A DNA stretch of 64,000 nucleotides from Brevibacillus humidisoli (GTDB lineage: Bacteria > Bacillota > Bacilli > Brevibacillales > Brevibacillaceae): NCBI RefSeq assembly GCF_020923435.1, contig NZ_CP087263.1, forward strand, positions 885,970 to 949,969. The letters are read 5' to 3'. The position numbers and the translations under genes were made by a program. Shown here in pieces: positions 10,114-27,618 of this stretch (positions within the stretch are counted from its first letter, which is position 1; each line of letters opens with the position of its first letter). The notes under the pieces are model-generated. The model saw only the letters and a program-made list of their open reading frames with translations. It had not been told where the DNA came from and ran no database searches.

Positions 10114-10125
10114 GGGGTGAGCAAC

Positions 10126-11250: not shown

Positions 11251-11283
11251 ATCAACCCGTCATAGATAAGTCAAGGAGGTAAA

Positions 11284-11517
11284 GTGAAAATGAAAGCAGA
11301 TATTGTTGTTGATGCAAAGGGATTGTCCTGCCCGATGCCGATCGTTCGGGCCAAAAAAGCGATGGACGGACTGCAACGTGGTCAGATCATGGAACTAGAA
11401 ACGACAGATAAGGGCGCCTTGAACGATTTTCAGGCATGGGCCCGACAAAATCATCATGAGCTTCTAAAAGCAGAGGAGGACAACGGTGTGATCCGGTTCT
11501 TGGTGAAGAAAGGGTAA
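11284..11517 (+). CDS. tusA: TusA family sulfurtransferase
   Basis: 77 aa with the CPxP active site (DAKGLSCPMPIVRAKKAM). RBS AAGGAGG. Confidence 0.8.
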   Translation: MKMKADIVVDAKGLSCPMPIVRAKKAMDGLQRGQIMELETTDKGALNDFQAWARQNHHELLKAEEDNGVIRFLVKKG

Positions 11518-11566: not shown

Positions 11567-11600
11567 CAAAACCCTTGAGAAATCAGGGGTTTTTGTTTTT
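11567..11600 (+). terminator. rho-independent terminator after the sulfur operon
   Basis: AAAACCCT-tgagaaatc-AGGGGTTTT followed by TGTTTTT. Confidence 0.65.
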
Positions 11601-11611
11601 CCTCACACAAA

Positions 11612-11627
11612 CGTGATAAAAATCACG
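11612..11627 (+). promoter_or_regulatory. Fnr/Crp-type box CGTGA-N6-TCACG upstream of hemEHY, with a -10 TATCAT at 11649-11654
   Basis: Perfect GTGA-N6-TCAC core in the palindrome CGTGATAAAAATCACG. The -10 hexamer lies about 30 nt downstream of the box centre, the class II geometry. Confidence 0.4.
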
Positions 11628-11760
11628 GCAGCAATAGGATGAAAAAACTATCATTACAAACAAAACCATCGCTCTTCCATAGTGGAGTAGCCTTTCCGTC
11701 CTATTTGCTCACTGGAGGGCATGGTTACTCCACTCCAGGCATAAAAAGGAGGAAAAAACG

Positions 11761-12824
11761 ATGAAGTACAACGACAACTTTCTAAGAAGCTGTAGAAAAG
11801 AAGAAGTGGACACGATTCCGGTTTGGTACATGCGCCAGGCGGGCAGATATGACCCGGACTATCGCCGAATCAAGGAGAAGTACTCGCTATTGGAAATATG
11901 CGCGATACCGGAACTGGCTGCGGAAGTGACGATGATGCCGGTGAAAAAGCTAGGGGTAGACGCTGCCATCCTATACTCGGATATTATGAATCCTGTTGCA
12001 TCGATCGGGATTGACTTTGATATCGTCAAAAACGTTGGCCCGGTTATCCACAATCCAATCCGATCAGCCCGGGACGTGGAGCAGTTGCGTCCTATCGATG
12101 TGGAAGGGGATTTACCGCATGTTTTACAGACCATCCAGATCCTTGAGCGTGAACTAGCTGTGCCGCTCATTTCGTTTGTAGGTGCGCCGTTTACGATTGC
12201 CAGCTACCTGATCGAAGGCAAGTCTTCCAAGAAGTATGTAAAAACAAAAGCGCTGATGTACAATGAGCCAGAGCTTTGGGGTTCGCTGATGGACATATTG
12301 ACGAACATGGCTGTCACCTACATTCGAGCGCAAATGGGCGCGGGGGCAAAAGCGGTGCAGGTGTTTGACAGTTGGGTAGGGGCGCTCTCCCCCGGGGCTT
12401 CCGGAAGTATGTCCTGCCTTCACTCAAACGCATTTTCTCGGAACTGGCTGATCTTCCTCAGCCAAAGATCTATTATCCAGGTGTAAGTTCTGGTGAACTG
12501 CTATGCGAATTGAGAGAAATAGAAGCGGACGTGATCGGATTGGACTGGCGGGTATCGATCCGCGAAGGACGACAACGGGTTGGGGAACGATTCGTCATAC
12601 AGGGCAATCTCGATCCGACGGTGCTAACCGCACCCATACCAGTTATTCAACATTACGCCAGGCAGATCGTGGATCAGGGAGTCGAAAAACCAGGGTACAT
12701 ATTTAATCTCGGCCACGGCGTCTTTCCGGAAGCATCACTGGATCATTTAAAAGCTTTGACGGAATATGTGCACAACTATCCTGCAGCGGTGCTGCGAGAC
12801 ATGTCGGCAGGAAGGGGAGCCTGA
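11761..12824 (+). CDS. hemE: uroporphyrinogen decarboxylase HemE, frame broken by a 1-nt indel in the C5G4 run near 12393
   Basis: ORF 11761..12486 has the HemE N-terminus (PVWYMRQAGRY...) through QVFDSWVGALSP. ORF 12372..12824 continues FRKYVLPSLKRIF... in another frame. Adding one G in cccccgggg restores ALSPGGFRKY. Confidence 0.85.
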
Positions 12825-12828
12825 TCTG

Positions 12829-13764
12829 ATGTCCCACAATAGCGTCGGGGTTCTTGTTATGTCGTACGGTACGCCTGCCAGCCTGGATGATGTGAAGACG
12901 TATTATACACATATTCGCCGTGGGGTGCCGCCGACTCAGGAACAACTGGCAGCCTTGGTCTCTCGGTACGATTCGATAGCAGGAGGGTGTTTTCCCCTGC
13001 GAAAGAACACGGATGAACAGGCTGCTGCGCTGCAGTTGACACTGGATCGGGAGTATTCGTTCTCCGAATACGTCTGTTTTCAAGGTCTGAAGCATGCCCC
13101 TCCTTTTATCGAAGAAGGAGTGGAACAGATAGCGGCAGCCGGAATACGCAAGGCCGTAGGAATTGTGCTGGCGCCTCATTATTCCGCCTTGAGCGTTGGA
13201 GCCTACATCGAACGGGCCAGAAAGAAAGCGAAAGAACTTCACCTCGATATGCGCTTCGTCAAAAGCTACCACGATCATCACCTGCTGATCCAAGCGCTCG
13301 CGACTCGGGTGAGACGGGGGCTTGACCGTTTCCCCCTAGCAGACCACCCTCAGGTTCGCGTTATTTTTACTGATCACAGTCTCCCCGCAAGCATTCTGGA
13401 AAGAGGAGATCCATACCCTGAACAGTTGATGCAGACCTCCTGCCTGGTCGCTAAAATGTCGGGCGTCACCAATTGGCAATTCGCATGGCAGAGTGCGGGA
13501 CGGACCGATGTGCCGTGGCTAGGTCCCGACATTTTGGACGTGTTGGAAACGGTCTGCCGCCAGGAGAGGGTCAAGAACGTGCTAATCTGTCCGGTTGGAT
13601 TTGTTTCTGACCACTTGGAAGTGCTTTACGACATTGATATCGAATGCAGACAGTTGGCGGAGTCGTTTGGCATGCAGTTGGAACGGACGGAGATGCTGAA
13701 TGCAGACCCCGCTTACATGAAACTTTTGGCCGAAGTGGTTCACCGTGCGGCTGAAGAAGGATGA
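12829..13764 (+). CDS. hemH: ferrochelatase (coproporphyrin ferrochelatase HemH/CpfC)
   Basis: 311 aa. Ferrochelatase signature (GVLVMSYGTP...VNWQFAWQSAG...DHLEVLYDIDIE). Start ATG 12829 lies 5 nt after the hemE stop; the ORF track's upstream extension is not supported. Confidence 0.85.
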   Translation: MSHNSVGVLVMSYGTPASLDDVKTYYTHIRRGVPPTQEQLAALVSRYDSIAGGCFPLRKNTDEQAAALQLTLDREYSFSEYVCFQGLKHAPPFIEEGVEQIAAAGIRKAVGIVLAPHYSALSVGAYIERARKKAKELHLDMRFVKSYHDHHLLIQALATRVRRGLDRFPLADHPQVRVIFTDHSLPASILERGDPYPEQLMQTSCLVAKMSGVTNWQFAWQSAGRTDVPWLGPDILDVLETVCRQERVKNVLICPVGFVSDHLEVLYDIDIECRQLAESFGMQLERTEMLNADPAYMKLLAEVVHRAAEEG

Positions 13765-13771
13765 TGCGAAG

Positions 13772-15238
13772 ATGAGTGAGTCGGGCAAGCGCGTGCTGAT
13801 TGCTGGTGGCGGGATCACCTGCTTGAGCGCTGCTTATGAGCTGAAAAAGCGGTTTACCGAACGAGGAGAGCAAGTTCGAATTACCCTCGTTGAACAGGAG
13901 GATCGGTTTGGAGGAAAAATCGCCACGCTGCGGAAAGATGGGTTTGTCATCGAAAGCGGGCCAGATTCTTTTTTAGCCAGAAAAAAGGCGATCCTGGACG
14001 TCACAAAAGAGCTGGGACTGGAGTCGGAACTTATCGCGACCAGACCGGAAGCGAAAAAAACCTATATCTTCCGAAAGCAAAAGCTTTGTCCCATTCCCCC
14101 GGGATTGGTGATGGGCATCCCCAGCCGGCTGCTCCCCTTTCTTACGTCCGGCCTGATCTCACCATTTGGAAAAGCGAGAGCAGCCATGGACCTGATCCTG
14201 CCATGCAGACAGGCGGACGGAGATGAATCAATCGGCCAATTCATTGAACGGAGATTCGGGAGAGAGATGCTGGATCGAGTCGTCCAGCCGCTTCTGGCGG
14301 GTATCTATTCTGGAGATTGTCGGACATTAAGCCTTCAGGCCACATTTCCCCATTTGCAGGAGATAGAGAGAAAACACCGAAGTCTGATCCTTGGAATCAT
14401 GAAAGGCGTAGGGCAAGCGTACACTGCTACATCACCCTCCAGTTCTTCAACCGGGCTGCCTGAACATGTCAAGGGCAGTCTGTTTCTCTCCTACCGAAAT
14501 GGGCTGTATACAATTGTAGAGAAGCTGTTGGAGCAGTTAAGCGATGCGGAACAGGTGACAGGCGCAAAAATTGTGAAGCTTGAGGTGAGACAGGAGGAGG
14601 GAAGGATCTGGTACCGCACGATCTCCTCGAACGGCAGGGAGTTTGCCGCGGACGCCGTCATTCTGGCATTGCCAGCTTACGCGTTGGCGCATGTTTTCCC
14701 CCGTCTTGCATCGATCCGATCACTTGGGAGGATGCCGTACGTCTCCGTAGCCAATGTGGTGCTGGGATTTAAGCGAGAGCAGATCGTGCATCCTTTGGAC
14801 GGCTCGGGTTTTGTCATCCCTCCTTGTGAGGGAAGGTTCGTCACCGCTTGTACGTGGACATCGTCGAAATGGAGCCATACGTCACGTGAGGGGCACGTGC
14901 TGCTTCGCTGCTATGTAGGACGTACGGGAGATGAAGAATGGATGGGGATGGATGATGATGAGATCATAGAAAGTGTCATGCACGAGTTGTCGGAAACGAT
15001 AGGGGTCCGGGCTCAGCCGATTATTGCAGAAGTAAATCGTCACCTGAAAGCGATGCCGCAGTACGAAGTAGGTCACTTAGCGCGAGTTGCCCGTATTCAT
15101 GAAGTATTGTCCGAACGGTACCCTGGGGTGTTTGCCGCCGGGGCGGCTTTCCACGGCATTGGCTTGCCTGATTGTGTACGTCAGGGAAAAGAAGCGGCAG
15201 AGCAGGTGATGAACTACCTGCTATACTCTGACAAGTAA
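13772..15238 (+). CDS. hemY: protoporphyrinogen/coproporphyrinogen III oxidase HemY (FAD-dependent)
   Basis: N-terminal FAD dinucleotide-binding motif VLIAGGGITCLSAAYEL. The hemE-hemH-hemY gene order matches Bacillus. Start ATG 13772 just after the hemH stop. Confidence 0.85.
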   Translation: MSESGKRVLIAGGGITCLSAAYELKKRFTERGEQVRITLVEQEDRFGGKIATLRKDGFVIESGPDSFLARKKAILDVTKELGLESELIATRPEAKKTYIFRKQKLCPIPPGLVMGIPSRLLPFLTSGLISPFGKARAAMDLILPCRQADGDESIGQFIERRFGREMLDRVVQPLLAGIYSGDCRTLSLQATFPHLQEIERKHRSLILGIMKGVGQAYTATSPSSSSTGLPEHVKGSLFLSYRNGLYTIVEKLLEQLSDAEQVTGAKIVKLEVRQEEGRIWYRTISSNGREFAADAVILALPAYALAHVFPRLASIRSLGRMPYVSVANVVLGFKREQIVHPLDGSGFVIPPCEGRFVTACTWTSSKWSHTSREGHVLLRCYVGRTGDEEWMGMDDDEIIESVMHELSETIGVRAQPIIAEVNRHLKAMPQYEVGHLARVARIHEVLSERYPGVFAAGAAFHGIGLPDCVRQGKEAAEQVMNYLLYSDK

Positions 15239-15248
15239 GGAGGGTTCG

Positions 15249-15971
15249 ATGAAAAAAGGATATCTCCCTAACCAACATGGTGCCTGGGCGATGCTGATCA
15301 TTCCGTTCCTATTCGGCATGATCGCAGCAAAGCCTGTTTGGCTTCATGCACCGCTGTTTCTTGTCTGGCTGCTGGTATACCTGTTTTCATATCCGTTCCT
15401 TCAGTGGATCAGAACCGGTAGGACAGCGCTCTACGGGACGCCCATGCTATTGTACGGAAGTTTGCTAATACCGAGTGGAGTGGCCGTGCTCGTTATCCAT
15501 CCAGCTTTGGGCTGGATGGTCCCCCTGTTCGTTCCACTCTTTCTAGTCAACTGCTATTATGCCCGGATCAATCAGGAACGTTCGCTGATCAATGATCTGG
15601 CTGCTGTCGTTCAGTTCAGTTTGATCATCTTTGTCGTGCAGCAGGCAGGAGGAGGAAGCAGTGGAGAAGTTGCCGCAGAGTTATTCGCGATAAGTCTCAT
15701 GTATTTTACGGGAACGGTTTTTTATGTAAAAACAATCATTCGCGAAAAACACAATAAGAAGTACTATTTTTACTCTATCGGTTATCACCTCGCTATCCTG
15801 GTCATGACGGCGATCTGGTTTCCGCTCGGGCTGCTAATACCGTTCGCCGTTTTGCTCGGTCGGGCGATCTGGACTCCACGAATGCGAGTAACGGTTAAGC
15901 AGGTCGGGATACTGGAGATTCTGTTCTCTGTTCTAATCACCTGTTCCGTGCTGTATGTCTACCTGACATAG
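15249..15971 (+). CDS. YwiC-like family membrane protein
   Basis: 240 aa, about 7 TM segments. N-terminus LPNQHGAWAMLIIPFLFGMIAA matches my recollection of the YwiC-like family, which in B. subtilis sits at the nar/arfM locus. RBS GGAGGG. Confidence 0.45.
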   Translation: MKKGYLPNQHGAWAMLIIPFLFGMIAAKPVWLHAPLFLVWLLVYLFSYPFLQWIRTGRTALYGTPMLLYGSLLIPSGVAVLVIHPALGWMVPLFVPLFLVNCYYARINQERSLINDLAAVVQFSLIIFVVQQAGGGSSGEVAAELFAISLMYFTGTVFYVKTIIREKHNKKYYFYSIGYHLAILVMTAIWFPLGLLIPFAVLLGRAIWTPRMRVTVKQVGILEILFSVLITCSVLYVYLT

Positions 15972-16052
15972 GAGAGGGGAACACAGGGGAACTCGGTTGG
16001 ATTTTTGGTTTGGTCACAGTTTTTTCGCAATTAACTTTTCATTTTTCTGGTT

Positions 16053-16068
16053 TGTGAGGGGCATCACT
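16053..16068 (+). promoter_or_regulatory. Fnr/Crp box TGTGA-N6-TCACT upstream of the qNOR gene, with a -10-like TATCGT at 16090-16095
   Basis: TGTGAGGGGCATCACT, a 9/10 match to TGTGA-N6-TCACA. Class II spacing to the -10-like hexamer. Confidence 0.45.
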
Positions 16069-16137
16069 TTATCCGTTTTGGTGGCGATGTATCGTTTACT
16101 TGCCTAATACAAACCAAACGGAAAGGAAGTAGATGAC

Positions 16138-18499
16138 ATGGCTGCCGAACCATCGAAGGGTTATATGCTGCAACCCGAACGAAGAACCCAACCGGGGCCC
16201 CAAAATGCTCTGCTCAAATCAGTACTGGTCTTTGTGCTGATTGCCAGCTTCTCTGTTTTGCTGCTGGGCGGTTACTGGATCTTCAAAGACCAAGCGCCGC
16301 GTCCCGAGAAGGTTGTCAGCGCTGCCGGAGATGTCCTCTTTACAAAAGAGCGCCTGATAGGAGGTCAGGCCGTTTTCCAAAAATACGGTCTGATGGATTA
16401 CGGCACCGTACTGGGACATGGTTCGTATCTCGGTCCCGATTACACGGCAGAAGCTTTGAAGGTGTATGTAGACGGCATGCACGCCTACTACGCACAAAAA
16501 GAGTACGCGATGCCGTTTGACCACCTGACGAGCGAGCAGCAAAACAAGATCAAGCAAGCAGTGATTGCGGAGATCAAGCAGAACCGTTATGACCCGAGTT
16601 CACAAACGTTGTATCTAACCGAGGCACAGGTCTCTGGACTGGATGATGTGCGAAAGTTCTATCGCCAGGTGTTTACAGCAGGGGACGGACACGGAATCCT
16701 GCCCGGTCTGATCAAGGAATCCGATGTCCCGGAAAACGGACGCCAGTACGTGGCTGAAGGCGATCAGATCACGCAAATCGCCGACTTTTTGGACCGCCTG
16801 GCTGTCCAGTACGTATCGGCCTGGTGAAGATATCACCTATACCAACAACTGGCCCTATTTCGAGGAGGCTGGAAACACGATGTCCTACTCTGCTTTGTGG
16901 TGGAGCGGGGCAAGTGCAACCCTGCTGATCTTGTTCATCGGCATCACTTTGTACATCCACCACGGCTACCGTTTTGACATGGAAGAGGCGTACCAGCCGG
17001 GCCATTTCCCCGTCATCAATCTGAAATTACTGCCGGTCACGCCGTCCCAGAGGAAAACGGGAAAATACTTCACAGTGGTCATCCTGCTGTTCTTAGTTCA
17101 GTCCTTGCTCGGCGGGCTATTGGCTCACTACTACCTGGAGCCAGATACGTTCTTCGGCGCGGATTGGGTAGCGGAGTGGTTCCCCTTCAGCATCGCCAAA
17201 TCGTATCACCTGCAGTTGGCGATCTTCTGGATCGCAACGGCCTGGTTGGGCATGGGCATCTACGTTGCTCCGCTGGTTGGAGGACGAGAACCAAAAAAAC
17301 AAGGGCTGCTTGTCGACATGTTGTTCTGGGCACTGGTCGTGCTTGTCGCTGGCAGTACGATTGGCGAGTGGTTGGGCATCAACGGCTATCTCGCAAACGC
17401 CTGGTTCTTGTTTGGCCACCAGGGTTGGGAATACCTGGAGTTGGGCCGCATCTGGCAGGTGGTACTCGCAATCGGCATGCTGATCTGGCTGTTCATCGTA
17501 TATCGGGGATTAAAGGACGGGCTCAAACAAGAGTCAGATAAAGGTGGTCTGATCCACCTGCTGTTTTACTCGGCAATCGCCGTGCCGTTTTTCTATCTGT
17601 TCGCGTTCCTGATCAATCCCGGAACACACTTCACGTTTGCCGATTACTGGCGTTGGTGGATTATTCACTTGTGGGTTGAGGGAATCTTTGAAGTATTTGC
17701 GGTTGTCGTAATCGGGTTTTTAATGGTGCAAATGGGTCTGACAACCAAAAAATCAACGGTTCGTGCCCTCTATTTTCAGCTCATCCTGCTGCTCGGTTCC
17801 GGGGTTATCGGGATTGGACACCACTACTACTACAACGGATCGTCCGAGGCCTGGATCGGATTGGGTGCGGTCTTTTCCGCTCTCGAAGTCATCCCGCTTA
17901 CATTGCTCATCCTAGAAGCGTACGGCCAGTATAAAATGTTGACGGATGGAGGGGAGATTTTCCCCTACAAAGCACCATTCTGGTTTCTTATTTCTGTTGC
18001 GATTTGGAACTTGGTTGGCGCGGGCGTGCTGGGCTTCCTGATCAACTTGCCGGCTGTCGCCTATTTTGAGCACGGCACAACCTTGACCCCGGCTCACGGA
18101 CACGGGGCCATGATGGGCGTATATGGCATGTTTGCCATTGCCGTACTCTTGTTCTCCTTGCGAAACATCGTCCAACCGGAAAAATGGAACGACAAACTGT
18201 TGAAAGTCTCCTGCTGGGGATTAAACATCGGGCTGGCCGGCATGATTCTCGTTACCCTGCTGCCGGTGGGCATGGAACAACTAAAAGTTGCTTATGAACA
18301 TGGCTTTTGGGCAGCACGTTCTGCAGACTTTTATCAGATCCCGCTTGTGAACATGCTGCTCTGGTGGCGTCTCGTGCCCGATTCCATCTTTATCGTGTTC
18401 GGTGTATTTCCGCTGACGTGGTTTGCCGTGAAGTCGCTGCTCCACCTGAGAAAACCGACGGTATCGGAAAACCCGATTGCTCCGTTCATACCAGTTTGA
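16138..18499 (+). CDS. norZ: quinol-dependent nitric oxide reductase large subunit (qNOR, NorZ/NorB), frame broken by a 1-nt indel near 16810
   Basis: ORF 16138..16827 is the N-terminal hydrophilic extension typical of qNOR. ORF 16724..18499 is the 12-TM heme-copper-oxidase-type domain with His ligand clusters (HHGYRF..., WIIHLWVEG, GIGHHYYYNG, PAHGHGAMMG). Removing one G of cgg near 16810 joins them as ...YVSPGEDITY.... Confidence 0.85.
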
Positions 18500-19180
18500 A
18501 TGTCGTACAGGTGGGGGATGGCTTACTGCTAGATTCGACCCAACTCTTTTGGACATACTTCACATTTGAAGCCGTTTGCAAATAGTCCAAGTCGGTAATC
18601 ATCATGGTTCTGTCATCCATGATCGTAATTGCTCCCGCTTGTTTCAAACTCCTCAGCGTCCGATTTACGCTTTCACGAGCGCGTCCAGCGTAGTCGGCCA
18701 ATTGGGAATGCGTCAGTTTCAAAGGAATATGAATTCCCTGATCAGTAGCCAATCCGTATGTATTGGACAACCGGATCAGAGTGGAACAGAGGGCCCCCGG
18801 CTTGCCGTGCATCATCAGATCCCGAAATTTTGTTTGCGTCAATTTGTGCATGTATCCCATCCAAAGTATGAAATCAATCGCCAAACCTGGGTCCTGCTAT
18901 AACAGCACTTCCAGTCGCTGTTTGAGATCAGGCCGATCTTGCATGGTCCAATCGTTTGCGCGGAAAAGCCATGCACGGTATCGCGATAAGGGTCCAGTTG
19001 TCCAAAAAAATCTCCTGCATGGTAGAGCCGTCTCAAGAAGTATATAAATGCGTACGGCGTCGGAGTGTGACCTAACTCACTGCAGGAACAGGTGATGAAG
19101 GTGACCTGCATCACAGAGGATAGAAATGATACCCCATATACTTTAGATGGAAGCACACTATGAATAGAAAGGAAGGATGA
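18486..19180 (-). pseudogene. Crp/Fnr family regulator paralog disrupted by multiple frameshifts
   Basis: ORF 18486..18884 encodes only the dimerisation helix and HTH (WMGYMHKLTQTKFRDLMMHGKPGALCSTLIRLSNTYG...TDLDYLQ), about 77% identical to the intact paralog at 23122. The cNMP-domain segment (LYHAGDFFGQLDPYRDTVHGFSAQTIGPCKIGLI) lies in another frame within ORF 18839..19402. Further upstream fragments (DAGHLHHLF) sit in a third frame. Confidence 0.55.
19065..19114. promoter_or_regulatory. two Fnr/Crp boxes in the scdA / Crp-paralog divergent region
   Basis: TGTGACCTAACTCACT (19065-19080) and GGTGACCTGCATCACA (19099-19114). A -10 TATACT at 19136-19141 sits ahead of scdA. Confidence 0.45.
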
Positions 19181-19183
19181 GAA

Positions 19184-19897
19184 ATGGAGCAACGCTATTC
19201 TGGAGAAGAAAAGATTGGTCATATTGTCTCTGAGTTTCCAGGAGCAAGCAACTTGTTCAAAGAACTGAAGATTGACTTTTGTTGCGGAGGCAACCGCAGT
19301 TTGGGGGATGCAATCCGCCAAAGGAAACTGGATGAAGGGGATGTGTTGCGTCGATTGAACAAAAGCTTTGCAGAATGGAAACAGAAAGAGGCACATGACC
19401 AAACGGATTGGCGGGTAGCCCCCATCTCAGAATTGATTGACCACATCATCCATGTTCATCACGCTTACTTGCGAGTAGAGCTTCCTCTGTTAAGTGAATT
19501 CATTACGAAGCTGCTTCGGGTTCATGGTCTCACCCACGGCGAGCTTTCCACATTGCATAGACAATTCCATCAAATGAAAATCGAACTGGAGCAGCACCTG
19601 ATGATCGAAGAGGAGTCGCTCTTTCCGCTGATGAAGGAATATGCGACTCATCCATCTCGGGCACTGCTCGAGAGAACCCTGAAAGGACTGCGGGATGTAG
19701 AAAACGATCACAGCGCAGTGGGCGACTATCTGCAGGAGATGAGAGCTGCAACAGAAGGATATGCCTTGCCGCATGATGCATGCAGAACATACACGATCAC
19801 GTTTCACAAACTGGTGGAGCTGGAATCGGATTTGTTCCAGCATATTCATCTGGAGAACAATATTTTGTTCCCCCGGATTGAGGAACAAGCGGTGTGA
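19184..19897 (+). CDS. scdA: iron-sulfur cluster repair di-iron protein ScdA/RIC (YtfE family)
   Basis: N-terminal ScdA_N motif (DFCCGGNRSL) and hemerythrin-like HHE cation-binding domains (HHAYLRVELP, ENNILFP). RBS GGAAGGATGAG. Confidence 0.85.
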   Translation: MEQRYSGEEKIGHIVSEFPGASNLFKELKIDFCCGGNRSLGDAIRQRKLDEGDVLRRLNKSFAEWKQKEAHDQTDWRVAPISELIDHIIHVHHAYLRVELPLLSEFITKLLRVHGLTHGELSTLHRQFHQMKIELEQHLMIEEESLFPLMKEYATHPSRALLERTLKGLRDVENDHSAVGDYLQEMRAATEGYALPHDACRTYTITFHKLVELESDLFQHIHLENNILFPRIEEQAV

Positions 19898-19937
19898 CAG
19901 GGGGAATGGAAAGACGAGAAAAGCCGTTTGTTTGGCA

Positions 19938-19979
19938 GCCCCGTAACGGATTCCCAGTTTCGGGGCTTGCTTTTTATTT
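19938..19979. terminator. bidirectional terminator between scdA and the convergent crp-family gene
   Basis: GCCCCG-(17 nt)-CGGGGC followed by TTGCTTTTTATTTATTTT. Confidence 0.55.
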
Positions 19980-20673
19980 ATTTTAGTTCCCTTTGTTGTT
20001 TTAACGCATCCAGATCGATAATGACGATGCGGCTTCGATCTGCTTTCAAGATATCTTCCTTGCCTAGTTGGTTCAGCAGCCGATTGATGGTTTCTCTCGT
20101 CGTGCCGACAGCATTGGCAAATTCCTGGTGCGTCATCGGCAGGTTGATCGTGATTCTGTTATCTTTCATCTCTCCGTGTTGTTCGGCCAGGTGCAACAAG
20201 AAAGAGAGCAGGCGATGTTTGACGTCCTGTCCAGACAACACTTGAAGCTTTTCTTGAAGCTCCCTGATTTTATCTCCCATCACACGCATTAACTTGATGG
20301 CGATCGGCGGGGTCTGCAGCATTAAACGCTCAAACAAACGCACCGGAATAGCCAACAGCTGCGTATCGACGATGGTTTCCGCCGTTGCCGGATAGGGATC
20401 TTGATTAAAAAAGCCGGTATGTGGAAACATGTCGCCGGACTTTAAAAACGAGACGATATGTTCGTGCCCGTCTTCGTCCGTTTTATACGTTTTGACCAAC
20501 CCTTCCCGAATGAAGAAGACAGCTTCCTTCTCGCTCCCTTCTGAAAAAATGACCGATTTTTTCGAAGCATACCGGGATATGGTGATTTCCTCTACTCGTT
20601 CTATTTCCTGCCTGTTCAGATCGCGGAATATGGGTACCTGTTGAAGAAATGTGGTCGTCCCTTCCTTTGTCAT
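19978..20673 (-). CDS. Crp/Fnr family transcriptional regulator (no Cys cluster)
   Basis: 231 aa from ATG 20673 (RBS GGAGGA). cNMP-binding-like domain followed by a C-terminal HTH (THQEFANAVGTTRETINRLLNQL). The ORF track's 53-codon N-terminal extension has no RBS. Confidence 0.8.
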   Translation of the reverse strand: MTKEGTTTFLQQVPIFRDLNRQEIERVEEITISRYASKKSVIFSEGSEKEAVFFIREGLVKTYKTDEDGHEHIVSFLKSGDMFPHTGFFNQDPYPATAETIVDTQLLAIPVRLFERLMLQTPPIAIKLMRVMGDKIRELQEKLQVLSGQDVKHRLLSFLLHLAEQHGEMKDNRITINLPMTHQEFANAVGTTRETINRLLNQLGKEDILKADRSRIVIIDLDALKQQRELK

Positions 20674-20817
20674 CTGAATCCTCCTCTTTTTATCTCTCAC
20701 CGTCCAAAGCTCTAGCAATATGGTACCACATGCAACAAACCTGCCACCATTGCTGGGAGAACGGATCGGAAGAAAAGTTTGACAAAATGGTGACCTCAGG
20801 TGCAAAAGCGGCAGATG

Positions 20818-20833
20818 TGTGACAGCTCTCACA
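20818..20833 (+). promoter_or_regulatory. perfect Fnr/Crp box TGTGA-cagctc-TCACA upstream of the radical SAM gene, with a -10-like TAGGAT at 20855-20860
   Basis: Exact 5+6+5 palindrome. Shared with the divergent crp-family gene. Confidence 0.5.
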
Positions 20834-20894
20834 TCTTGTGCCTGTCGCCTGGGTTAGGATAGATTCGGCGGTCGATCCAGGGAGAGGGGAAGTG

Positions 20895-21935
20895 ATGATG
20901 CTGCCTTTTATGAAGGAGAGAGATTATCGCGAGAATCCATTTATCGTCATTTGGGAGGTGACGCGGGCGTGCGCTCTAAAGTGCCTGCATTGCCGGGCTG
21001 AAGCGCAGTATCAGGCTGATCCCCGGCAGCTGTCATACGCAGAGGGGAAAAACCTTCTTGATGATATCGCCAGGATGGATCATCCATTGGTTGTCTTTAC
21101 GGGAGGCGATCCTCTGATGCGGCCTGATCTGTTTCATCTTGCTGAATATGCGATCCAGGAAAAAGGATTGTCGGTTTCCATGACACCTAGTGCGACCCCG
21201 AGGGTAACGCGGGAAGCAATTCGCCAGGCCAAGGAGGTAGGATTGTCACGCTGGGCGTTTAGTCTGGACGGTTCCTGCACCGGGATTCACGATCATTTTC
21301 GGGGTACAAAGGGGTCCTACGATCTGACGATGCGTGCGATTGGTTGGTTGCAGGAACTGGACATTCCCTTGCAAATCAACACCACAGTATCCCGTTACAA
21401 CCTGCACGATCTGGAAGCGATCGCTGAGAAAGTGAAGGAAATGGGTGCCGTGCTGTGGAGTCTCTTTTTCCTTGTACCGACCGGTCGTGGTATGGAGAAG
21501 GATATGATCTCTGCAGAAGAGCACGAAACCGTGATGAAGTGGTTATGCCGTATGGGACCCCACTTGCCATACAGTGTGAAAGCAACCGAGGCTCCGCATT
21601 ATCGCCGTGTCCTGTTGCAGGAGCGGGAAGGTACGGGAGCGGGTGGAGCAACGATTCCGAAGCGTGCAGATCTGCTCGGCCGGGCACCCCAAGGAGTGAA
21701 CGACGGAGACGGATTCGTCTTTATCAGCCACATCGGGGAGGTATATCCAAGCGGTTTTTTACCGGTAGTTTGCGGGAACATTCGCGAGACCTCTCTGGTG
21801 GAGATCTATCGATCCTCTCCAATCATGCAGGAACTGCGGGACAAGTCGCGATTGAAAGGAAAATGTGGCGTGTGCGAATTCAAGGATTTAGGCGGAGGTT
21901 CACGCGCCAGGGCGTATGCCGTAACCGGCGATTAA
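20895..21935 (+). CDS. radical SAM/SPASM domain protein
   Basis: CxxxCxxC (CALKCLHC) radical SAM cluster motif near the N-terminus. C-terminal Cys-rich SPASM-like region (CGNIRET...CGVCEF). Start ATGATG 20895 after GAGAGGGGAAG. The Fnr box lies inside the ORF track's upstream extension, so that extension is not coding. Confidence 0.75.
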   Translation: MMLPFMKERDYRENPFIVIWEVTRACALKCLHCRAEAQYQADPRQLSYAEGKNLLDDIARMDHPLVVFTGGDPLMRPDLFHLAEYAIQEKGLSVSMTPSATPRVTREAIRQAKEVGLSRWAFSLDGSCTGIHDHFRGTKGSYDLTMRAIGWLQELDIPLQINTTVSRYNLHDLEAIAEKVKEMGAVLWSLFFLVPTGRGMEKDMISAEEHETVMKWLCRMGPHLPYSVKATEAPHYRRVLLQEREGTGAGGATIPKRADLLGRAPQGVNDGDGFVFISHIGEVYPSGFLPVVCGNIRETSLVEIYRSSPIMQELRDKSRLKGKCGVCEFKDLGGGSRARAYAVTGD

Positions 21936-22007
21936 CTGGAGAGTGACCCATCTTGCGTTTATGTGCCCCGGAATGATCGGGCGAGATGATACGAAGGAGT
22001 GATTGAG

Positions 22008-22553
22008 ATGAACCAAATACCTCACTGCGGCATGATGGCGGGGCAGGGGGAACAGGTGAGACTTTGCAAAGCACTGGCCCAACTGAAGAGGGAGCATGGA
22101 CCGCTACGTGCACAAATGGATGCTTTTGCCGATGAGGCAGCTGTAGTTGACAAGGATCAGGCCGAAACAGACTGGGGCAAGCGGCTCTGGTTGTTGAGGG
22201 AAAAAGTGGATGCCTTTGTGCAAGAGCTGGAACCTCATTCCGAGCGGGAAGAAGGAACTCTTTTTCCGCTTATGGCCAAGTACATTGGCTGGCAGGGCGG
22301 GCCGATTGCCGTGATGGAGCATGAACACGAACTGGCAAAGCGGTACCTGAAGATGTTTCTAGAAGCGGTGGAACAACTCAAGGAACCGGTAGATGCCGCA
22401 CGGGCCAAAGAGATTGCTTCATATGCCCTGCAAGCCCATGCTGTTTTAACAGATCATTTCATGAAAGAAGAGAATGTACTCTTTCCGATGGCGGAAAACA
22501 TGTTGAACACGGAAGAAAAAGAGGAGCTAAACCGTGCGTTTGGCCTGTCCTGA
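22008..22553 (+). CDS. hemerythrin domain (HHE cation-binding) protein
   Basis: Helix-pair His/Glu ligands (HSEREEGTLFP, MEHEHELAKRY, LTDHFMKEENVLFP). RBS AAGGAG 9 nt before ATG 22008. Confidence 0.7.
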   Translation: MNQIPHCGMMAGQGEQVRLCKALAQLKREHGPLRAQMDAFADEAAVVDKDQAETDWGKRLWLLREKVDAFVQELEPHSEREEGTLFPLMAKYIGWQGGPIAVMEHEHELAKRYLKMFLEAVEQLKEPVDAARAKEIASYALQAHAVLTDHFMKEENVLFPMAENMLNTEEKEELNRAFGLS

Positions 22554-22733
22554 CATATTTTCTGCGGCAAATGGGCAATCGCCCCTGGTGGGATCCATTT
22601 GATAAGGCCGTACTCACTCTTTCAGGGGCATGATAGGAGACCTGGGAGGGCGTGTGGCAGAGGTTGCGATCGCTTGTCCAGCCGAGATACACAGAGTGAT
22701 CTATCATCTGATTGACAGGGGGGAGCGGAGGGT

Positions 22734-23087
22734 ATGCCGGATCAATTCATAACATCGACTGGAGCAAACACGGTTGAAATCCGCTCCTATACCATGGGGC
22801 AGGATGCCGTATTCCTCGTTACAGGGGGGGAAGCTCATATCGGGGCCGCAGCAACGGCCTTCTTTTCGGAAAAGCGGACATTTGCACGCACGTCATATCG
22901 CTGCCTGGCCATCGGGAAGGGGAACTAGCTGTCCAACTAGCCCAGATGGCTTGCCGCAGGTTAGGACGAACCGCTGCTGTACTGGTAGGTATTCATCTGG
23001 ATCAACCGTCTAAGCAGGAGATTGAGTCTATCGTAGTGGAAGCAAAAAAGAAGCTGAAGCAAACACTCACGCAATGGAACGATTGAT
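22734..23087 (+). CDS. hypothetical protein (about 117 aa), interrupted by an indel in the gggaagggg run at 22914-22922
   Basis: ORF 22734..22928 (MPDQF...VFLVTGGEAHIGAAATAF...CLAIGKGN) continues in frame +2 as ELAVQLAQMACRRLGRTAAVLVGIHLDQPSKQEIESIVVEAKKKLKQTLTQWND through 23087. Family unknown. Confidence 0.3.
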
Positions 23088-23121
23088 CACTTGATCTTCT
23101 TCCGTTTGCTCGCCATTGTGA

Positions 23122-23835
23122 TTAGATGCGACAGATCTCTCTCGGGCCATTTTGCCAATGACTGATTCGGCGCAGGTACGGCGGGTCCAGGATTACAATA
23201 CGACCGTCTTCATAAGAAACCGCACCTGCTTTTTTCAGACTGGCAAGAGAGCGGTTCACACTCTCTCTTGTCGTGCCAATCATATTTGCCAATTCTGTAT
23301 TGGTGAATCGTTGTGAGAGCAGGATCTGTGATTCTTTTTCAACCCCATAGGTATTCCCCAAGCGCAGCAACAGCGAACAAAGCGTCCCCGTCTTACCGAA
23401 CAACATCAGATCGCGCAATTTTGTCTGGGTCAGTCGATGCATCAGGCCCATCCATTTCACAAACTCCACAGACAGATCGCCATGCTGCCGCAGCAATGCT
23501 TCCAGTTCACGCTGCTGAACAATGCCAACAGTAGCATCCGCTATTATTTCCGCTCCGAAGTAATGAGTTGATGTTGCAAATGGGTCAATCTGACCAAACA
23601 TATCTCCTTCGTGATACAGATAAACAATCAGGGATTTCCCATCATCAACTGCTTTCGTTATGCGAACCTTTCCTTGGGAGAGGTAGTACAGCTTATCTGC
23701 CGGGTCGCCTTCTGAAAACAGGTGGGTACCTGCGGGGAACAACTTTTCAGACATGATCTCCTTCAGCTTGGAAAATACCTTTTCAGAAAAACAGAATGTA
23801 TTCTCTATGGTTGTTTTGAGATCGCTATGGATCAT
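23122..23835 (-). CDS. Crp/Fnr family transcriptional regulator (ArfM-like, single C-terminal Cys)
   Basis: 237 aa. cNMP-binding domain (LFSEGDPADKLYYLSQGKVRITKAVDDGKSLIVYLYHEGDMFGQ) followed by an HTH (NTELANMIGTTRESVNRSLASL). Confidence 0.8.
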   Translation of the reverse strand: MIHSDLKTTIENTFCFSEKVFSKLKEIMSEKLFPAGTHLFSEGDPADKLYYLSQGKVRITKAVDDGKSLIVYLYHEGDMFGQIDPFATSTHYFGAEIIADATVGIVQQRELEALLRQHGDLSVEFVKWMGLMHRLTQTKLRDLMLFGKTGTLCSLLLRLGNTYGVEKESQILLSQRFTNTELANMIGTTRESVNRSLASLKKAGAVSYEDGRIVILDPPYLRRISHWQNGPREICRI

Positions 23836-24099
23836 CAGCGACTTCCTCCCATCTTGTTTGTTTATCTTTCACTATAGAGAAATGGACTCTTGTATGGAGT
23901 GAGGAACATCACGCCCTATGATAGAGAGAGTCCGCACGGGACGGTCTCATCAGACTGCAGACAAAGTGCAGCGGCGTGGGGGAGAGCAGCTCTTTTCCTC
24001 CAGTCGCTCCGTTGCCAACCTGCGAGGAAGCGGGACTGTCCGCTGCGCCAGTCCGAAACGGGCGGTCGTGGCCAGTGGTCACCATTTTGTAAATAAGAA

Positions 24100-24115
24100 T
24101 GTGAAGTTTATCACT
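24100..24115 (+). promoter_or_regulatory. Fnr/Crp box TGTGA-agttta-TCACT upstream of narK
   Basis: A 9/10 match to the consensus, about 110 nt before the first NarK-like coding sequence. Confidence 0.4.
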
Positions 24116-24227
24116 TATCTGGGGAGCGATAGCCATTACATTTTAGTTGACAACGTCACCCTCGGAAAGGTGAGTGAAATGAAAAGAATTTTACCTGCAC
24201 TAGACAAACTGAAATATTTTACGAAGC

Positions 24228-25655
24228 GTGAACGCTACTCGGACGGTTGGAGCGAAATGTCTCCGTACGGGCGAGAGTGGGAGGATGGATATCGTTCCCG
24301 CTGGCAGCACGATAAGGTGGTTCGCTCGACGCACGGAGTGGTACCATGTTCGTCATCTCGTTTTTGTTCCTAATCGCACCTGTGTTTTACCTGAGTCGGG
24401 CCAATGCCTTTTGGGATTTGATCGTCAGTGGTTTTTTCTCGGGATCGGGGGAGCCATTTTTTCGGTAGGTGTCACATCGCTTCCCAAGTATTACAGCAAG
24501 GAAAAGCACGGATTGGTAAACGGTGTGTACGGGATGGGAAACATCGGTACGGCCGTGACGTCGTTTATGGCACCGGTTCTGGCCAACATGTTCGGCTGGA
24601 CGACGACGGTTCAGTTGATGATCGGGCTGCTTGCTCTCTTCGCCCTGCTCAACTTTTTGCTGGGAGACCGTAACGAGCCAAAAGTGCTGACGCCGCTCAA
24701 GTCTCAACTGCACAGCGTATCCCGCAATCCGAAGCTCTGGCTGCTCAGTTTGTTCTATTTTATTACGTTCGGAGCATTCGTTGCGTTTACCGTGTACCTG
24801 CCGAACTTCCTCGTCAGCCATTTTAATCTCGACAAGGTGGATGCCGGGTTTCGCACCGCTGGGTTCATTGTCCTCTGCACGCTGATTCGGCCGGTGGGAG
24901 GGTGGCTGGCAGACCGCTGGAACACGTTCGTCGTCCTGATGGTTGTCTTTGCCGGCCTTACCGCTGCCGGCGTGATTCTCTCTTTCTCACCTTCCATCAT
25001 CATGTACACAGCGGGGTGCATGCTGGTAGCGATCTGTGCGGGGATTGGCAATGGAGCCATCTTCAAACTGGTTCCGCAGTATTTTTTGCAGCAAGCCGGA
25101 ATTGCCAACGGGATCGTCGCCATGTTCGGCGGATTGGGCGGCTTCTTTCCGCCGCTGCTGCTGCAGCTGGTTGAGCAAATCACTGGGCAGATGGCGATCG
25201 GATTCATGGCTCTCTCTGAGCTTGCTCTGGCTAGCCTGATTCTGACGACCTGGTTGTACTACCAGGAACGGCTGCAGTTGTCCAAACGAATCATAGACAG
25301 TACGACACAAGGGATATTGCTGGCCGATCCCCGCGGCGTCATTCGCCAGGTGAATCCCGCTTTTACCACCCTCACCGGGTACGCAGAAGAGGAAGCGGTC
25401 GGGAAAACCCCGCGTATATTAAAGTCTGGTGAGCAGGATCGGTCATTTTATGAAAAGATGTGGAGATCGATCCGGGAGACCGGCAGTTGGCAGGGAGAGA
25501 TCTGGAACAGACGCAAGAACGGGGAAACGTATCTGGAGTGGCTGACGATCAGCTCGATCCGCGACGACGCGGGTGAGGTAAAATATTATATCGGGATGTT
25601 CAGTGACATAACAGCCAAACGACAGGAAGAGGCAACCCCAATCAAACGCTCTTGA
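24228..25655 (+). pseudogene. narK: NarK nitrate/nitrite MFS transporter fused to a C-terminal PAS domain, N-terminal region disrupted
   Basis: From about 24420 the frame-0 ORF tracks my recollection of B. subtilis NarK from TM3 onward (FLGIGGAIFSVGVTSLPKYYSKEKHG...GIGNGAIFKLVPQYF...GFFPPLLL). About 130 aa of PAS domain follow (ILLADPRGVIRQVNPAFTTLTGY...GEIWNRRKNGETYLEWLTIS...DITAKRQ). The NarK TM2 segment ([19 protein letters not shown]...DLIVSGFF) is in another frame (24316-24438), preceded by an in-frame TAA at 24313-24315. A frameshift sits in the T6 run near 24438. TM1 is not recognisable. Confidence 0.7.
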
Positions 25656-25701
25656 ACAACCGAACAAGTAGAAACCTTGGAACGCGCCGCTCCAAGGTTT
25701 T

Positions 25702-26409
25702 TTACATTTGGCAGATTTCCGGAGGGCAGTCATCACAATAAATGGCTTCTTTCAAGTAGGCAAGATTTTTGATCAGAATTTGTCCATAGGGGAGCAGTTC
25801 GATCACCTCTTGCTTCTTCAACTCTTGCAGCATCCGGTTGACGCTTTCCCTCGTCAGGCCAATTAACATGGCCAAGTCCTTATTGGTCATGGAGAGATCG
25901 ATGAGAATTCCGTCCGGATGAGGTTTGCCGTACGTATTGCTCATGCGAATCAACGTCGAATAGAGGGCTCCTATTTTTCCGTGGAGGAGCAAGTCGCGAA
26001 ATTTTGACTGCATCCGTCTGTTAATCATGCCCAACCAACGTAGAAACTCTACACAAAATTGGCTGTTCTTGATCAACATTTTTTCCAGCCCTTGGCGGGG
26101 GACCATCCACAATTCACCCACCTTTAGCATGGAAGCAGTGAGATTGTATGTCAGTTCTTGTTCGAACAACCCGGTAACACCGACAAGGTCCCCCTCGCTT
26201 GATATCTGCAGGGTCAGTTCCTTGCCGTCCATGGTGGTTTTTGTCAGCTTCACTTGGCCTGATTGAACAAAATACACCTGATCCGCTTTTTCACCATCTA
26301 AAAATAAAACGGTACCTGGAAAACATGTTTTCTTGGCAGCCAGTGTTTCAAGACATCGCAAAAAATCGGGAGAGACCTGTTCTGCAAAGGATAAGTTGTT
26401 GCCATTCAT
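25702..26409 (-). CDS. fnr: Fnr, Bacillus-type anaerobic regulator with a C-terminal [4Fe-4S] Cys cluster
   Basis: Crp/Fnr fold with an HTH (NKDLAMLIGLTRESVNRMLQEL). C-terminus ...AIYCDDCPPEICQM gives CxxCx4C, which matches my recollection of the cluster ligands of B. subtilis Fnr. Start ATG 26409 after GGGAGTG. Convergent with narK, as in the Bacillus narK-fnr neighbourhood. Confidence 0.85.
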   Translation of the reverse strand: MNGNNLSFAEQVSPDFLRCLETLAAKKTCFPGTVLFLDGEKADQVYFVQSGQVKLTKTTMDGKELTLQISSEGDLVGVTGLFEQELTYNLTASMLKVGELWMVPRQGLEKMLIKNSQFCVEFLRWLGMINRRMQSKFRDLLLHGKIGALYSTLIRMSNTYGKPHPDGILIDLSMTNKDLAMLIGLTRESVNRMLQELKKQEVIELLPYGQILIKNLAYLKEAIYCDDCPPEICQM

Positions 26410-26610
26410 GCGGGCTTCACTCCCAGTGGAAAATACATGACAACCATAGTATACCATCCAAGCATACCATCTGAGGTGGTCATTCTAATATAGTCATTCC
26501 TACCATGCTCATAAGTACGCAACCTGCCATTCAGAAGCATCCCTAAGGAAGTTCTTTTACCTTAATGTGACGAGTTTGTTCCTATTGTAGTCGGTGCAGG
26601 AGCAAGATGG

Positions 26611-26689
26611 TGTGACGAAGATCACAATGATCTGCTCGATTTTCTTCGTTTGACAAAAAAGCGTCACCATTTGTGTGAGCAATGTCACA
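26611..26689. promoter_or_regulatory. two perfect Fnr/Crp boxes between fnr and the heme-copper oxidase operon
   Basis: TGTGAcgaagaTCACA (26611-26626) and TGTGAgcaatgTCACA (26674-26689). Also TTGACA at 26650. Confidence 0.55.
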
Positions 26690-26753
26690 AGGCAAGCGTG
26701 GGAACTGCATTATTCTGAGGGTGAAGATGACCACATGAGGGAGGTGTTCGGAG

Positions 26754-26996
26754 ATGCAAGCAGGTTTTTTTCTGGCTTGTGCGGTGCTGGTTGTGATTTG
26801 GTTCATGTACGCCATAGGCAGACCGTTAACCACATTGAAGACAGCACTGTTTCTGACGTCGGCTGCCTGGATTCCCAGCTTGTTCTATCCCTATAAGGAA
26901 GTTCATTATGCGGGCTACTTTCTGCTGGCTGCCTTGATCTTCTGGATTTCCATGGAGATACTTCGGTTGGATAAAAAGGAGAGGATCGTGCAATGA
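26754..26996 (+). CDS. small membrane protein (80 aa), first gene of the oxidase operon
   Basis: Two TM helices. RBS GGGAGGTG. Stop overlaps the next start (ATGA). Confidence 0.4.
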   Translation: MQAGFFLACAVLVVIWFMYAIGRPLTTLKTALFLTSAAWIPSLFYPYKEVHYAGYFLLAALIFWISMEILRLDKKERIVQ

Positions 26997-27115
26997 AAAA
27001 CAAAAGGGAAGATAGCAGAAATCTAAAGGGGACCTTGCTTTGTGTTTTTGCCCTGGGTCTGCTCATTCTCGCCTCGTGGTTCGGCATGTTGGCTATCTAC
27101 CTGTCCAGACAATAA
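26993..27115 (+). CDS. small single-TM protein (40 aa), possible oxidase subunit IIa-like
   Basis: Below the ORF-track cutoff. ATG overlaps the upstream stop. Sequence MKNKREDSRNLKGTLLCVFALGLLILASWFGMLAIYLSRQ, a basic N-terminus plus one TM. Followed 17 nt later by subunit II with RBS AAAGGAAG. Confidence 0.35.
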   Translation: MKNKREDSRNLKGTLLCVFALGLLILASWFGMLAIYLSRQ

Positions 27116-27132: not shown

Positions 27133-27618
27133 ATGCATATTCACCGGTATGAAAAGTATTGGCTGGTTTTTGGCTTTTTATCGATTGTAACTTTTATCGC
27201 GTTTATGTTTGTCATGACATTTTCCACAGGTCACCACACGGCCGGCGGCATGGAGGTGATTGATCCGGAGAAAGTAGCGGAGACACCTCCGTTTGACAAG
27301 CCGGGTCTTAAAAAAGTGGGGGAGAACACGTACGAAGCAGTCGTTGTCGCTATGGCTTTTGGCTACAATCCGGCCAAGCTGGAAATTCCCAAGGGAGCGA
27401 AAGTTCACTTCAAGGTGACCAGTCAAGACGTGATCCACAGTTTTAGCATTCCCGGAACGAATGTAAACATGCAGATCGTCCCCGGCCATATCAGTGAAAG
27501 AGAACACACCTTCGACAAGCCAGGGGAGTATCTCGTACTGTGCAATGAGTATTGTGGCACAGGGCACCATATGATGACAATGGAAATTGAGGTGGTAGAG
27601 CATGCCAACCATCAATAA
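27133..27618 (+). CDS. heme-copper oxidase subunit II (cupredoxin, CuA site), ba3/B-family type
   Basis: One TM plus a cupredoxin domain with CuA ligands H...CNEYCGTGHHMM. Short (161 aa), like CbaB. Confidence 0.8.
   Translation: MHIHRYEKYWLVFGFLSIVTFIAFMFVMTFSTGHHTAGGMEVIDPEKVAETPPFDKPGLKKVGENTYEAVVVAMAFGYNPAKLEIPKGAKVHFKVTSQDVIHSFSIPGTNVNMQIVPGHISEREHTFDKPGEYLVLCNEYCGTGHHMMTMEIEVVEHANHQ

Follow-up and report, generated by a model that had tools for sequence, protein, structure and literature searches.

A 64,000-nt stretch of the genome of Brevibacillus humidisoli (NZ_CP087263.1, positions 885,970 to 949,969; hereafter the window) carries nine copies of an Fnr-type palindromic box, each placed in front of a -10 hexamer at one invariant distance. 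The downstream genes handle nitric oxide (NO), make haem or encode a haem-copper oxidase, and are accompanied by several Crp/Fnr-family regulators. The Fnr, HemH and CrpA proteins encoded here match proteins of B. humidisoli at 100% identity. We think it likely that the nine boxes are class II Crp/Fnr activator sites from which Fnr, and probably a cysteine-less paralogue that we call CrpA, would drive a partly decayed NO/haem/oxidase island.

The counts in this paragraph refer to this window, from one strain, with shuffled sequences (n = 100) or Markov simulations (n = 300) as background. The exact 8-nt core GTGA-N6-TCAC is present in nine copies against 0.91 expected, and the maximum among the 300 Markov simulations was five. 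All nine cores, starting at 11612, 16053, 19066, 19100, 20818, 23898, 24100, 26611 and 26674, are intergenic and fall inside 11612-26689, a region of which only 12.5% is intergenic. The Fnr-type boxes proposed in an earlier note on this DNA are thus real and their clustering is statistically overwhelming. That note had assigned them to seven transcription units, whereas nine promoters are found, the box at 23898 in front of the paralogue gene crpB having been overlooked; its positions hold except for 19065 and 19099, each off by one. The 10-nt palindrome TGTGA-N6-TCACA is matched perfectly three times (at 20818, 26611 and 26674; 0.09 expected). Allowing up to one mismatch gives nine matches against 1.95 expected, a number reached in 0 of 100 shuffles. 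With up to two mismatches enrichment is absent (26 matches against 30.9 expected), so loose position weight matrix scans would miss or dilute the signal and stringent thresholds are needed. The core GTGA-N6-TCAC is a better descriptor than the 10-nt palindrome.

At every one of the nine sites a TAnnnT hexamer begins 29.5 nt from the box centre, which is 21 nt past the box, and it does so on one side of the box only. Such hexamers have an intergenic background of 1.1% per position and strand, giving a probability of about 1e-15 for nine of nine by chance. The class II geometry read earlier from a spacing of about 30 nt is accordingly exact. A generic promoter scan returned no -35/-10 pair at any of the nine box positions. 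When the hexamer is taken as -12 to -7 the box centre comes to lie at -41.5, the classical class II position in which the activator site replaces the -35 element. Palindrome, site near -41.5 and a -10 element without a -35 consensus are together the features of a class II Crp/Fnr-activated promoter, the transcription starts here being predicted ones. Class II placement is the known mode of action of Bacillus subtilis Fnr, for whose promoters site centres of -41.5 and -40.5 are reported. The 64 kb contain no additional site in which one core mismatch is combined with this geometry. Where boxes are paired at divergent promoters, their centres are 63 bp (26611/26674) and 34 bp (19066/19100) apart.

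The same arrangement is found in relatives. Eighty loci around orthologues of CrpA, from Cohnella, Paenibacillus, Brevibacillus, Lederbergia and others (L001-L080; 1.56 Mb), hold 277-287 exact cores against approximately 24 expected, and the distances from box to good -10 hexamers peak sharply at 29.5 nt alone, where there are 201 cases as against at most 31 at any other offset between 18.5 and 44.5 nt. The aligned promoters of these relatives (n = 212) read TGTGA-N6-TCACA, then 21 nt without a conserved -35, then TAtaaT. Three points weigh against our reading or narrow it. The loci were picked by their proximity to CrpA, and these figures therefore speak for conservation without amounting to an unbiased test across genomes; in other Brevibacillus species the gene driven by the box upstream of fnr is the divergent one and not fnr, so that autoregulation of fnr is not a conserved feature; and the oxidase box is kept in only one of four comparable loci (L051, where it is correctly oriented). 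Among four independently fetched Brevibacillus fnr neighbourhoods, three have the same box and spacing, in front of narK-PAS in one (L081) and of hcp and hemerythrin genes in the other two (L083 and L084), and the core is absent from the fourth (L082).

Conservation can also be followed promoter by promoter. Orthologues of scdA, which encodes the iron-sulfur cluster repair protein RIC, have the box and TATACT at equal spacing in 16 of 17 cases, with the same weak left half-site, and the promoters orthologous to that of the divergent regulator pseudogene have an identical TATACT. The closest orthologues of the quinol-dependent NO reductase (qNOR) gene, in L079 and L080, are both preceded by boxes of equal geometry, as are 12 of 15 crpB-type genes. 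A box is conserved upstream of the radical SAM gene in 8 of 16 orthologues, several with TAGGAT, and in L016 and L078, the two loci with the gene arrangement seen here, box and -10 stand at the equivalent place before an intact narG. The box at 11612, directly downstream of a terminator (11568-11593), is the weakest-looking of the nine, yet it is kept at both loci that carry the same island-type hemE: the promoter in L086 consists of box, 21 nt and TATCAT, and that in L085 has the box with a 22-nt spacing. At four housekeeping hemEHY loci of Paenibacillaceae (L087-L090) the box is absent, and an ordinary promoter, TTGTCA...GGGCATAAT, is present instead.

The commonest box-driven genes in the 80 loci encode a YlbF-family protein whose C terminus bears a CGCGGSC motif (33 cases), CrpA itself (30) and a DUF2249 protein (22); neither the YlbF-family protein nor DUF2249 is encoded in the window. 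Other box-driven genes in relatives are scdA, narG, moaA, mobA, hcp, hmp, alsS and those for hemerythrin, the radical SAM protein, qNOR and a chemoreceptor.

The protein encoded at 25702-26409 (minus strand) shares 45% identity with B. subtilis Fnr across 97% of its length and has the Crp/Fnr architecture (Pfam cNMP_binding, HTH_Crp_2 and Crp). The [4Fe-4S] ligands of B. subtilis Fnr are C227, C230, C235 and Asp141, and with these align the cysteines of CDDCPPEIC (C-x2-C-x4-C) and the aspartate of SKFRDLLL. Judged by these features it is a Bacillus-type Fnr, as had been proposed.

Two further paralogues had been described as cysteine-less, which is accurate for CrpA alone. CrpA contains no cysteine, and the C-terminal cysteine motif is found in 0 of 96 orthologues, so the family is natively without it. 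CrpB is a degenerate Fnr in which only one of the four cysteines remains: its C terminus, ISHWQNGPREIC (S-H-W-Q-N-G-P-R-E-I-C), stands where all 15 orthologues of at least 45% identity have CxCxxCxxxxC, with S, W and G replacing cysteine through single-base changes, and it no longer has an Fnr-type cysteine cluster. CrpB is divergent from narG, as it is in L016 and L078. The decayed Crp-family gene reported beside scdA proved by tblastn to be a pseudogene, orthologous to a gene with the cysteine motif that in Cohnella lies divergent to scdA. Approximately 74 N-terminal codons are missing from the pseudogene, it contains an in-frame stop inside the alignment as well as frameshifts, and its intact promoter consequently now abuts codon ~75.

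CrpA orthologues are 65-81% identical across genera, and 120 homologues are named only 'Crp/Fnr family'. One of them, 73% identical, lies in a Paenibacillus polymyxa locus (L025). The sole sequence hint at haem or another cofactor and at a response to NO is a segment conserved across orthologues, FPHTGFF, with an invariant histidine. CrpA could not be assigned to DNR, NnrR, HcpR, FixK or NtcA, for which all NCBIfam hits were generic and far below cut-off, and a search of the PDB yielded no close relative, DNR ranking no closer than FNR, NtcA, CooA or CRP. Embedding among NO-related genes is the genomic signature by which DNR, NnrR and HcpR regulons were defined (PMC1274295). CrpA shows this association, its neighbourhoods and box targets in relatives including narGHJI, narK-PAS, scdA, qNOR, hcp, hmp, DUF2249 and hemerythrin genes, and it lies outside the DNR/NnrR/HcpR clades by sequence. 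The crpA gene has an extended -10 of its own, read from the sequence as TGGTACCAT at 20728-20720, about 100 nt from the box at 20818; within the window no box lies upstream of crpA in class II register.

The question of which protein acts at the boxes turns on the recognition helix. R-E-x-x-N-R is common to the three intact proteins Fnr, CrpA and CrpB, and R180 and E181 correlate with G and A of the half-site in a comparative study (PMC1274295); the sequence therefore cannot assign a regulator to a box. The earlier picture of an island under one Fnr motif stands as regards the shared box, but it assumed a single regulator where three proteins have the same helix. Should only the [4Fe-4S] Fnr bind all boxes, its paralogues would have no role there, and this we regard as possible but rather unlikely. 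Fnr is indeed the sole paralogue here with an intact cluster motif, the box is identical to the published Fnr motif of Bacillus and Paenibacillus, and in Brevibacillus fnr neighbourhoods that lack CrpA, genes for NarK-PAS, Hcp and hemerythrin are preceded by the same box in the same geometry. The recognition helix of CrpA is identical, however; CrpA is conserved at 65-81% across genera, and in each of the 80 loci fetched it lies within an island of this kind. In relatives CrpA is, moreover, often preceded by a box itself, which is hard to explain unless CrpA uses the motif. Because its helix is identical to that of Fnr, a CrpA dimer probably acts at the same boxes.

Joint use by Fnr and CrpA supposes that the boxes are functional. 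They might instead be unused relics that persist merely because the decay of the island is recent, an idea that draws on several lesions in target genes and on the boxes at 19066 and 24100, which serve a pseudogene and a deletion remnant yet still have a perfect core and -10. We consider it improbable, as fnr, crpA, scdA, hemH, hemY, ywiC, the hemerythrin gene and the four oxidase genes are intact with full-length domain matches, and some of the lesions, the indels, are possibly assembly errors; all nine sites, furthermore, retain core and -10 with no degenerate copy among them, though just 8+6 positions are constrained in each. Least credible of all is a role of the boxes as operators for Rex, a redox repressor. 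The Rex site TTGTGAA-N4-TTCACAA, which has an AT-rich centre and is quoted in PMC2883068, is a formal subset of TGTGA-N6-TCACA, so that the two consensus sequences overlap. GTGAA...TTCAC, however, occurs in 0 of the 9 sites, which are thus not Rex operators, and in the 212 oriented promoters of relatives the required A after GTGA (1%) and T before TCAC (3%) are the most avoided bases. A fixed place upstream of a -10 without a -35 also fits an activator and not a repressor.

The mechanism we propose for the nine promoters is that a dimeric Crp/Fnr-family activator would bind the palindrome at -41.5, take the place of the -35 element and contact RNA polymerase directly. The [4Fe-4S] Fnr would be the oxygen-responsive activator, active at low oxygen while its cluster is intact, and would feed back positively on its own distal promoter at 26611. 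The gene has in addition a proximal extended -10 of constitutive type, TGGTATACT, which lies closer to fnr than the distal box promoter. CrpA would most likely act through these boxes too, answering a second signal for which its gene neighbourhoods suggest a link to nitrate, nitrite or NO. The predicted outputs are NO removal and repair (qNOR, RIC and hemerythrin), extra haem synthesis (hemEHY-ywiC together with an AhbD-like radical SAM enzyme) and a B-family (ba3-type) oxidase. Enzymes of this AhbD-like kind have already been put forward as a substitute for the H2O2-dependent coproheme decarboxylase when oxygen is absent (PMC13564367).

The identities previously given to the target genes (qNOR, RIC/ScdA, radical SAM/SPASM protein, hemerythrin, ba3-type oxidase and hemEHY) are supported by Pfam, NCBIfam or alignment. 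The coordinates of promoters and genes are collected in the table below. Two promoter assignments had to be revised. The box at 20818 had been placed ahead of both the radical SAM gene and the divergent crp-family gene, crpA; the former is correct, but a shared divergent promoter is ruled out, the crpA side reading AGGTCA with no -10. The box at 24100, thought to precede narK-PAS, is actually the promoter of narG and stands before 54 narG codons fused to a truncated narK.

Table. Box promoters and genes of the island in the window (for boxes on the minus strand, the box is read on that strand).
Feature	Position	Strand	Assignment and basis
Box CGTGATAAAAATCACG, -10 TATCAT 11649-11654	11612-11627	+	Promoter of hemE-hemH-hemY-ywiC; core and geometry
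hemE	11761-12824	+	Pfam, NCBIfam; frame change ~12390 in C5G4 run
hemH	12829-13764	+	Pfam, NCBIfam
hemY/cgoX	13772-15238	+	Pfam, NCBIfam
ywiC	15249-15971	+	Pfam, NCBIfam
Box TGTGAGGGGCATCACT, -10 TATCGT 16090-16095	16053-16068	+	qNOR promoter; core and geometry
qNOR, quinol-dependent NO reductase	16138-18499	+	Pfam NorB_cytochrome_c-like and COX1; frame change ~16787, T5 run
Pseudogene of second Fnr-type regulator	18546-19039	-	tblastn: 59% identity over residues 117-238
Box AGTGAGTTAGGTCACA, -10 TATACT 19044-19039	19066-19081	-	Promoter of regulator pseudogene
Box GGTGACCTGCATCACA, -10 TATACT 19137-19142	19100-19115	+	scdA/RIC promoter; core and geometry
scdA/RIC, di-iron iron-sulfur cluster repair protein	19184-19897	+	TIGR03652, 248.5 bits (cut-off 204.7)
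CrpA, Crp/Fnr-family regulator, zero cysteines	19978-20673	-	Pfam, alignment
Perfect box TGTGACAGCTCTCACA, -10 TAGGAT 20855-20860	20818-20833	+	Promoter of radical SAM gene and hemerythrin
TIGR04053 radical SAM/SPASM protein (AhbD-like)	20895-21986	+	NCBIfam, 459.9 bits (cut-off 395)
Hemerythrin-domain protein	21999-22553	+	Pfam
CrpB, degenerate Fnr-type paralogue	23122-23835	-	Pfam, alignment, orthologue comparison
Box CGTGATGTTCCTCACT (forward AGTGAGGAACATCACG), -10 TATAGT 23876-23871	23898-23913	-	crpB promoter
Box TGTGAAGTTTATCACT, -10 TACATT 24137-24142	24100-24115	+	narG promoter; core and geometry
narG/narK-PAS remnant	24179-25655	+	Pfam Nitr_red_alph_N; MFS from profile position 92; PAS
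Perfect box, -10 TACAAT 26589-26584	26611-26626	-	Distal, box-dependent fnr promoter (predicted)
Perfect box, -10 TATTCT 26711-26716	26674-26689	+	Promoter of oxidase operon
Small membrane open reading frame (80 aa)	26754-26996	+	Precedes oxidase subunits
CoxIIa-like subunit	26993-27115	+	Marginal: 20.6 bits (cut-off 20.7)
Oxidase subunit II with CuA motif	27133-27618	+	Pfam COX2
Oxidase subunit I, ba3-type (B-family) cytochrome c oxidase	27602-29257	+	Full-length alignment to Thermus thermophilus ba3

The gene content agrees with the compact nitrosative/anaerobic island that had been suggested, but the island is partly decayed. At approximately 24341-24346, at a junction reading GGTACC, narG codons 1-54 (24179-24340; 89% identical to the start of NarG) are fused to narK-PAS from codon ~72, and tblastn matches the latter part with NarK-PAS of L081 and L084. 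In L016 the two junction points are separated by approximately 6.6 kb comprising the rest of narG, narH, narJ, narI and the 5' part of narK-PAS, from which it follows that the respiratory nitrate reductase has been deleted here. In the radical SAM gene GAA has become TAA at 21933-21935, approximately 17 codons before the end of the orthologues; homology continues beyond this stop to 21986 in tblastn, and one conserved SPASM cysteine is glycine. The TIGR04053 score given in the table is to be read with this in-frame stop and the replaced cysteine.

Single frameshifts in homopolymer runs also interrupt hemE, qNOR and, as a second lesion of the remnant, narK (~24432, T6 run); across the break in qNOR the 75% identity to the qNOR of L080 runs on. 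Similar frameshifts occur beyond the island, in glcF (T7 run, ~2682; 2670-2710) and repeatedly in a trans-acyltransferase (trans-AT) polyketide synthase cluster (46360-52686), and homopolymer frameshifts may be assembly indel errors or widespread pseudogenes. Since equivalent breaks are found outside the island and may be assembly errors, we rejected those in hemE, qNOR and the second narK lesion as proof of decay. The following lesions, by contrast, are real and no artefacts of sequencing: the deletion, the nonsense codon, the replaced cysteines and the pseudogene with its multiple damage. Each of them affects nitrate respiration or the regulators dedicated to it. The annotation of the locus is corrected accordingly, with narGHJI recorded as lost and two regulators as dead or degenerate.

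The hemEHY genes of the island suggest a second, island-borne copy. The closest relatives of HemH are from Brevibacillus sp. SYP-B805 (73%) and then Paenibacillus (64%), with no other Brevibacillus among the best 120 matches. The boxless housekeeping hemEHY loci, with their conserved TTGTCA...GGGCATAAT promoter, adjoin hemCDB, hemL and spoVID. Folding of the hemE leader (11662-11760, approximately 100 nt) yields a strong hairpin with -35.9 kcal/mol and z -3.97, the Shine-Dalgarno sequence GGAGGA being paired there with an upstream CUCUUCC. Related leaders in L085 (4868-4939) and L086 (2280-2359) have in common the core CTTCCGTCC...GAAGGG, and between these two the outer stem is changed on both sides (GGAGTA/TACTCC vs AAGAGC/GCTCTT), there being three leaders in all. 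The leader has no Rfam match, and an Rfam scan of 11-30 kb gave nothing meaningful. L086, a JGI metagenome contig of 9.2 kb, has hemE, hemH, an AhbD-like radical SAM gene, a hemerythrin gene, coxII and coxI in one row, with three Fnr-type cores of which only that before hemE has a -10 at class II distance; it represents this module in compact form.

Among the neighbouring genes, a PAC_bac-family gene (bacterial proteasome-assembly-chaperone-like) lies in two adjacent pieces in different frames at 22773-23074, and has an Fnr-type box upstream in four related loci. Just upstream of the island (8506-11517) is a sulfur-handling set, encoding a DsrE-like protein, a TauE/SafE exporter, a rhodanese/metallo-beta-lactamase fusion and TusA, that ends at the strong terminator 11568-11593. 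The trans-AT polyketide synthase cluster (38707-57417) encodes a thioesterase, a phosphopantetheinyl transferase, an AT-AT-enoylreductase-like protein and fragmented KS/DH/KR/ACP genes, with a 1576-aa open reading frame at 52687-57417.

Comparison with described systems shows how much of this is familiar. The B. subtilis Fnr regulon (narK-fnr, narGHJI, arfM and others) has the same Fnr fold and ligands, the same TGTGA-N6-TCACA box and ywiC nearby, and narG and narK are also among the ancestral targets here. It differs in that the B. humidisoli locus has lost narGHJI and part of narK, includes qNOR, RIC, a ba3-type oxidase and what is probably a second set of hemEHY, had up to four ancestral paralogous regulators, and gives fnr its own box-dependent distal promoter. 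RegPrecise gives TGTGA-N6-TCACA as the motif of Fnr in Bacillus and Paenibacillus; P. polymyxa WLY78 has Fnr1, Fnr3, Fnr5 and Fnr7, two with the cysteine motif and two without, and two of these paralogues bind the same promoters in electrophoretic mobility shift assays (bioRxiv 10.1101/2020.01.03.894683). That organism shares with ours several Fnr paralogues per genome and the same 16-bp motif; unlike B. humidisoli it is a facultative anaerobe with an intact nar operon, and the study neither describes a fixed 21-nt spacing nor gives the cysteine-less paralogues a signal.

CrpA resembles the DNR/NnrR/HcpR regulators (PMC1274295) in lacking an Fe-S motif and in standing among qNOR, scdA/dnrN-like, hcp and hmp genes in relatives, whereas its putative box is of the CRP-like TGTGA type and not of the TTGAT or GTAAC types of DNR and HcpR2. 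The oxidase aligns end to end in subunit I with T. thermophilus ba3 (1EHK, E 1e-117) and likewise has a short CuA subunit II and, marginally, a CoxIIa-like subunit, which together identify a B-family (ba3) haem-copper oxidase; it differs in the Fnr-type box upstream and in the extra 80-aa membrane open reading frame before the operon.

The locus is an ordinary Fnr-family regulon, its motif, geometry and multiple Fnr paralogues having already been described for Bacillus and Paenibacillus, and it does not overturn current understanding. It is a clean and consistent example of how such regulons are wired in Bacillales, with one palindrome, one invariant spacing and no -35, and the rule of box, 21 nt and TAnnnT can be applied directly to Paenibacillaceae and Brevibacillus genomes to call the genes that belong to the regulon. 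In this group the programme for low oxygen and NO would include a B-family oxidase and, together with an AhbD-like enzyme, a probable second set of haem-synthesis genes. We suggest only tentatively that CrpA, conserved across genera and with its invariant FPHTGFF, may stand for a sensor family, so far uncharacterised, in Paenibacillaceae, Brevibacillus and Lederbergia that acts at the box of Fnr with NO or nitrite as its input, perhaps through haem. If so, one cis-element in one fixed geometry would integrate two gases through two interchangeable activators, and in B. humidisoli nature would have run the experiment of discarding nitrate respiration together with two Fe-S paralogues while keeping the NO-defence, haem and oxidase half of the regulon. 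The most interesting point is the signal to which the conserved cysteine-less paralogue responds, CrpA being the obvious candidate for the missing NO/nitrite sensor in these bacteria.

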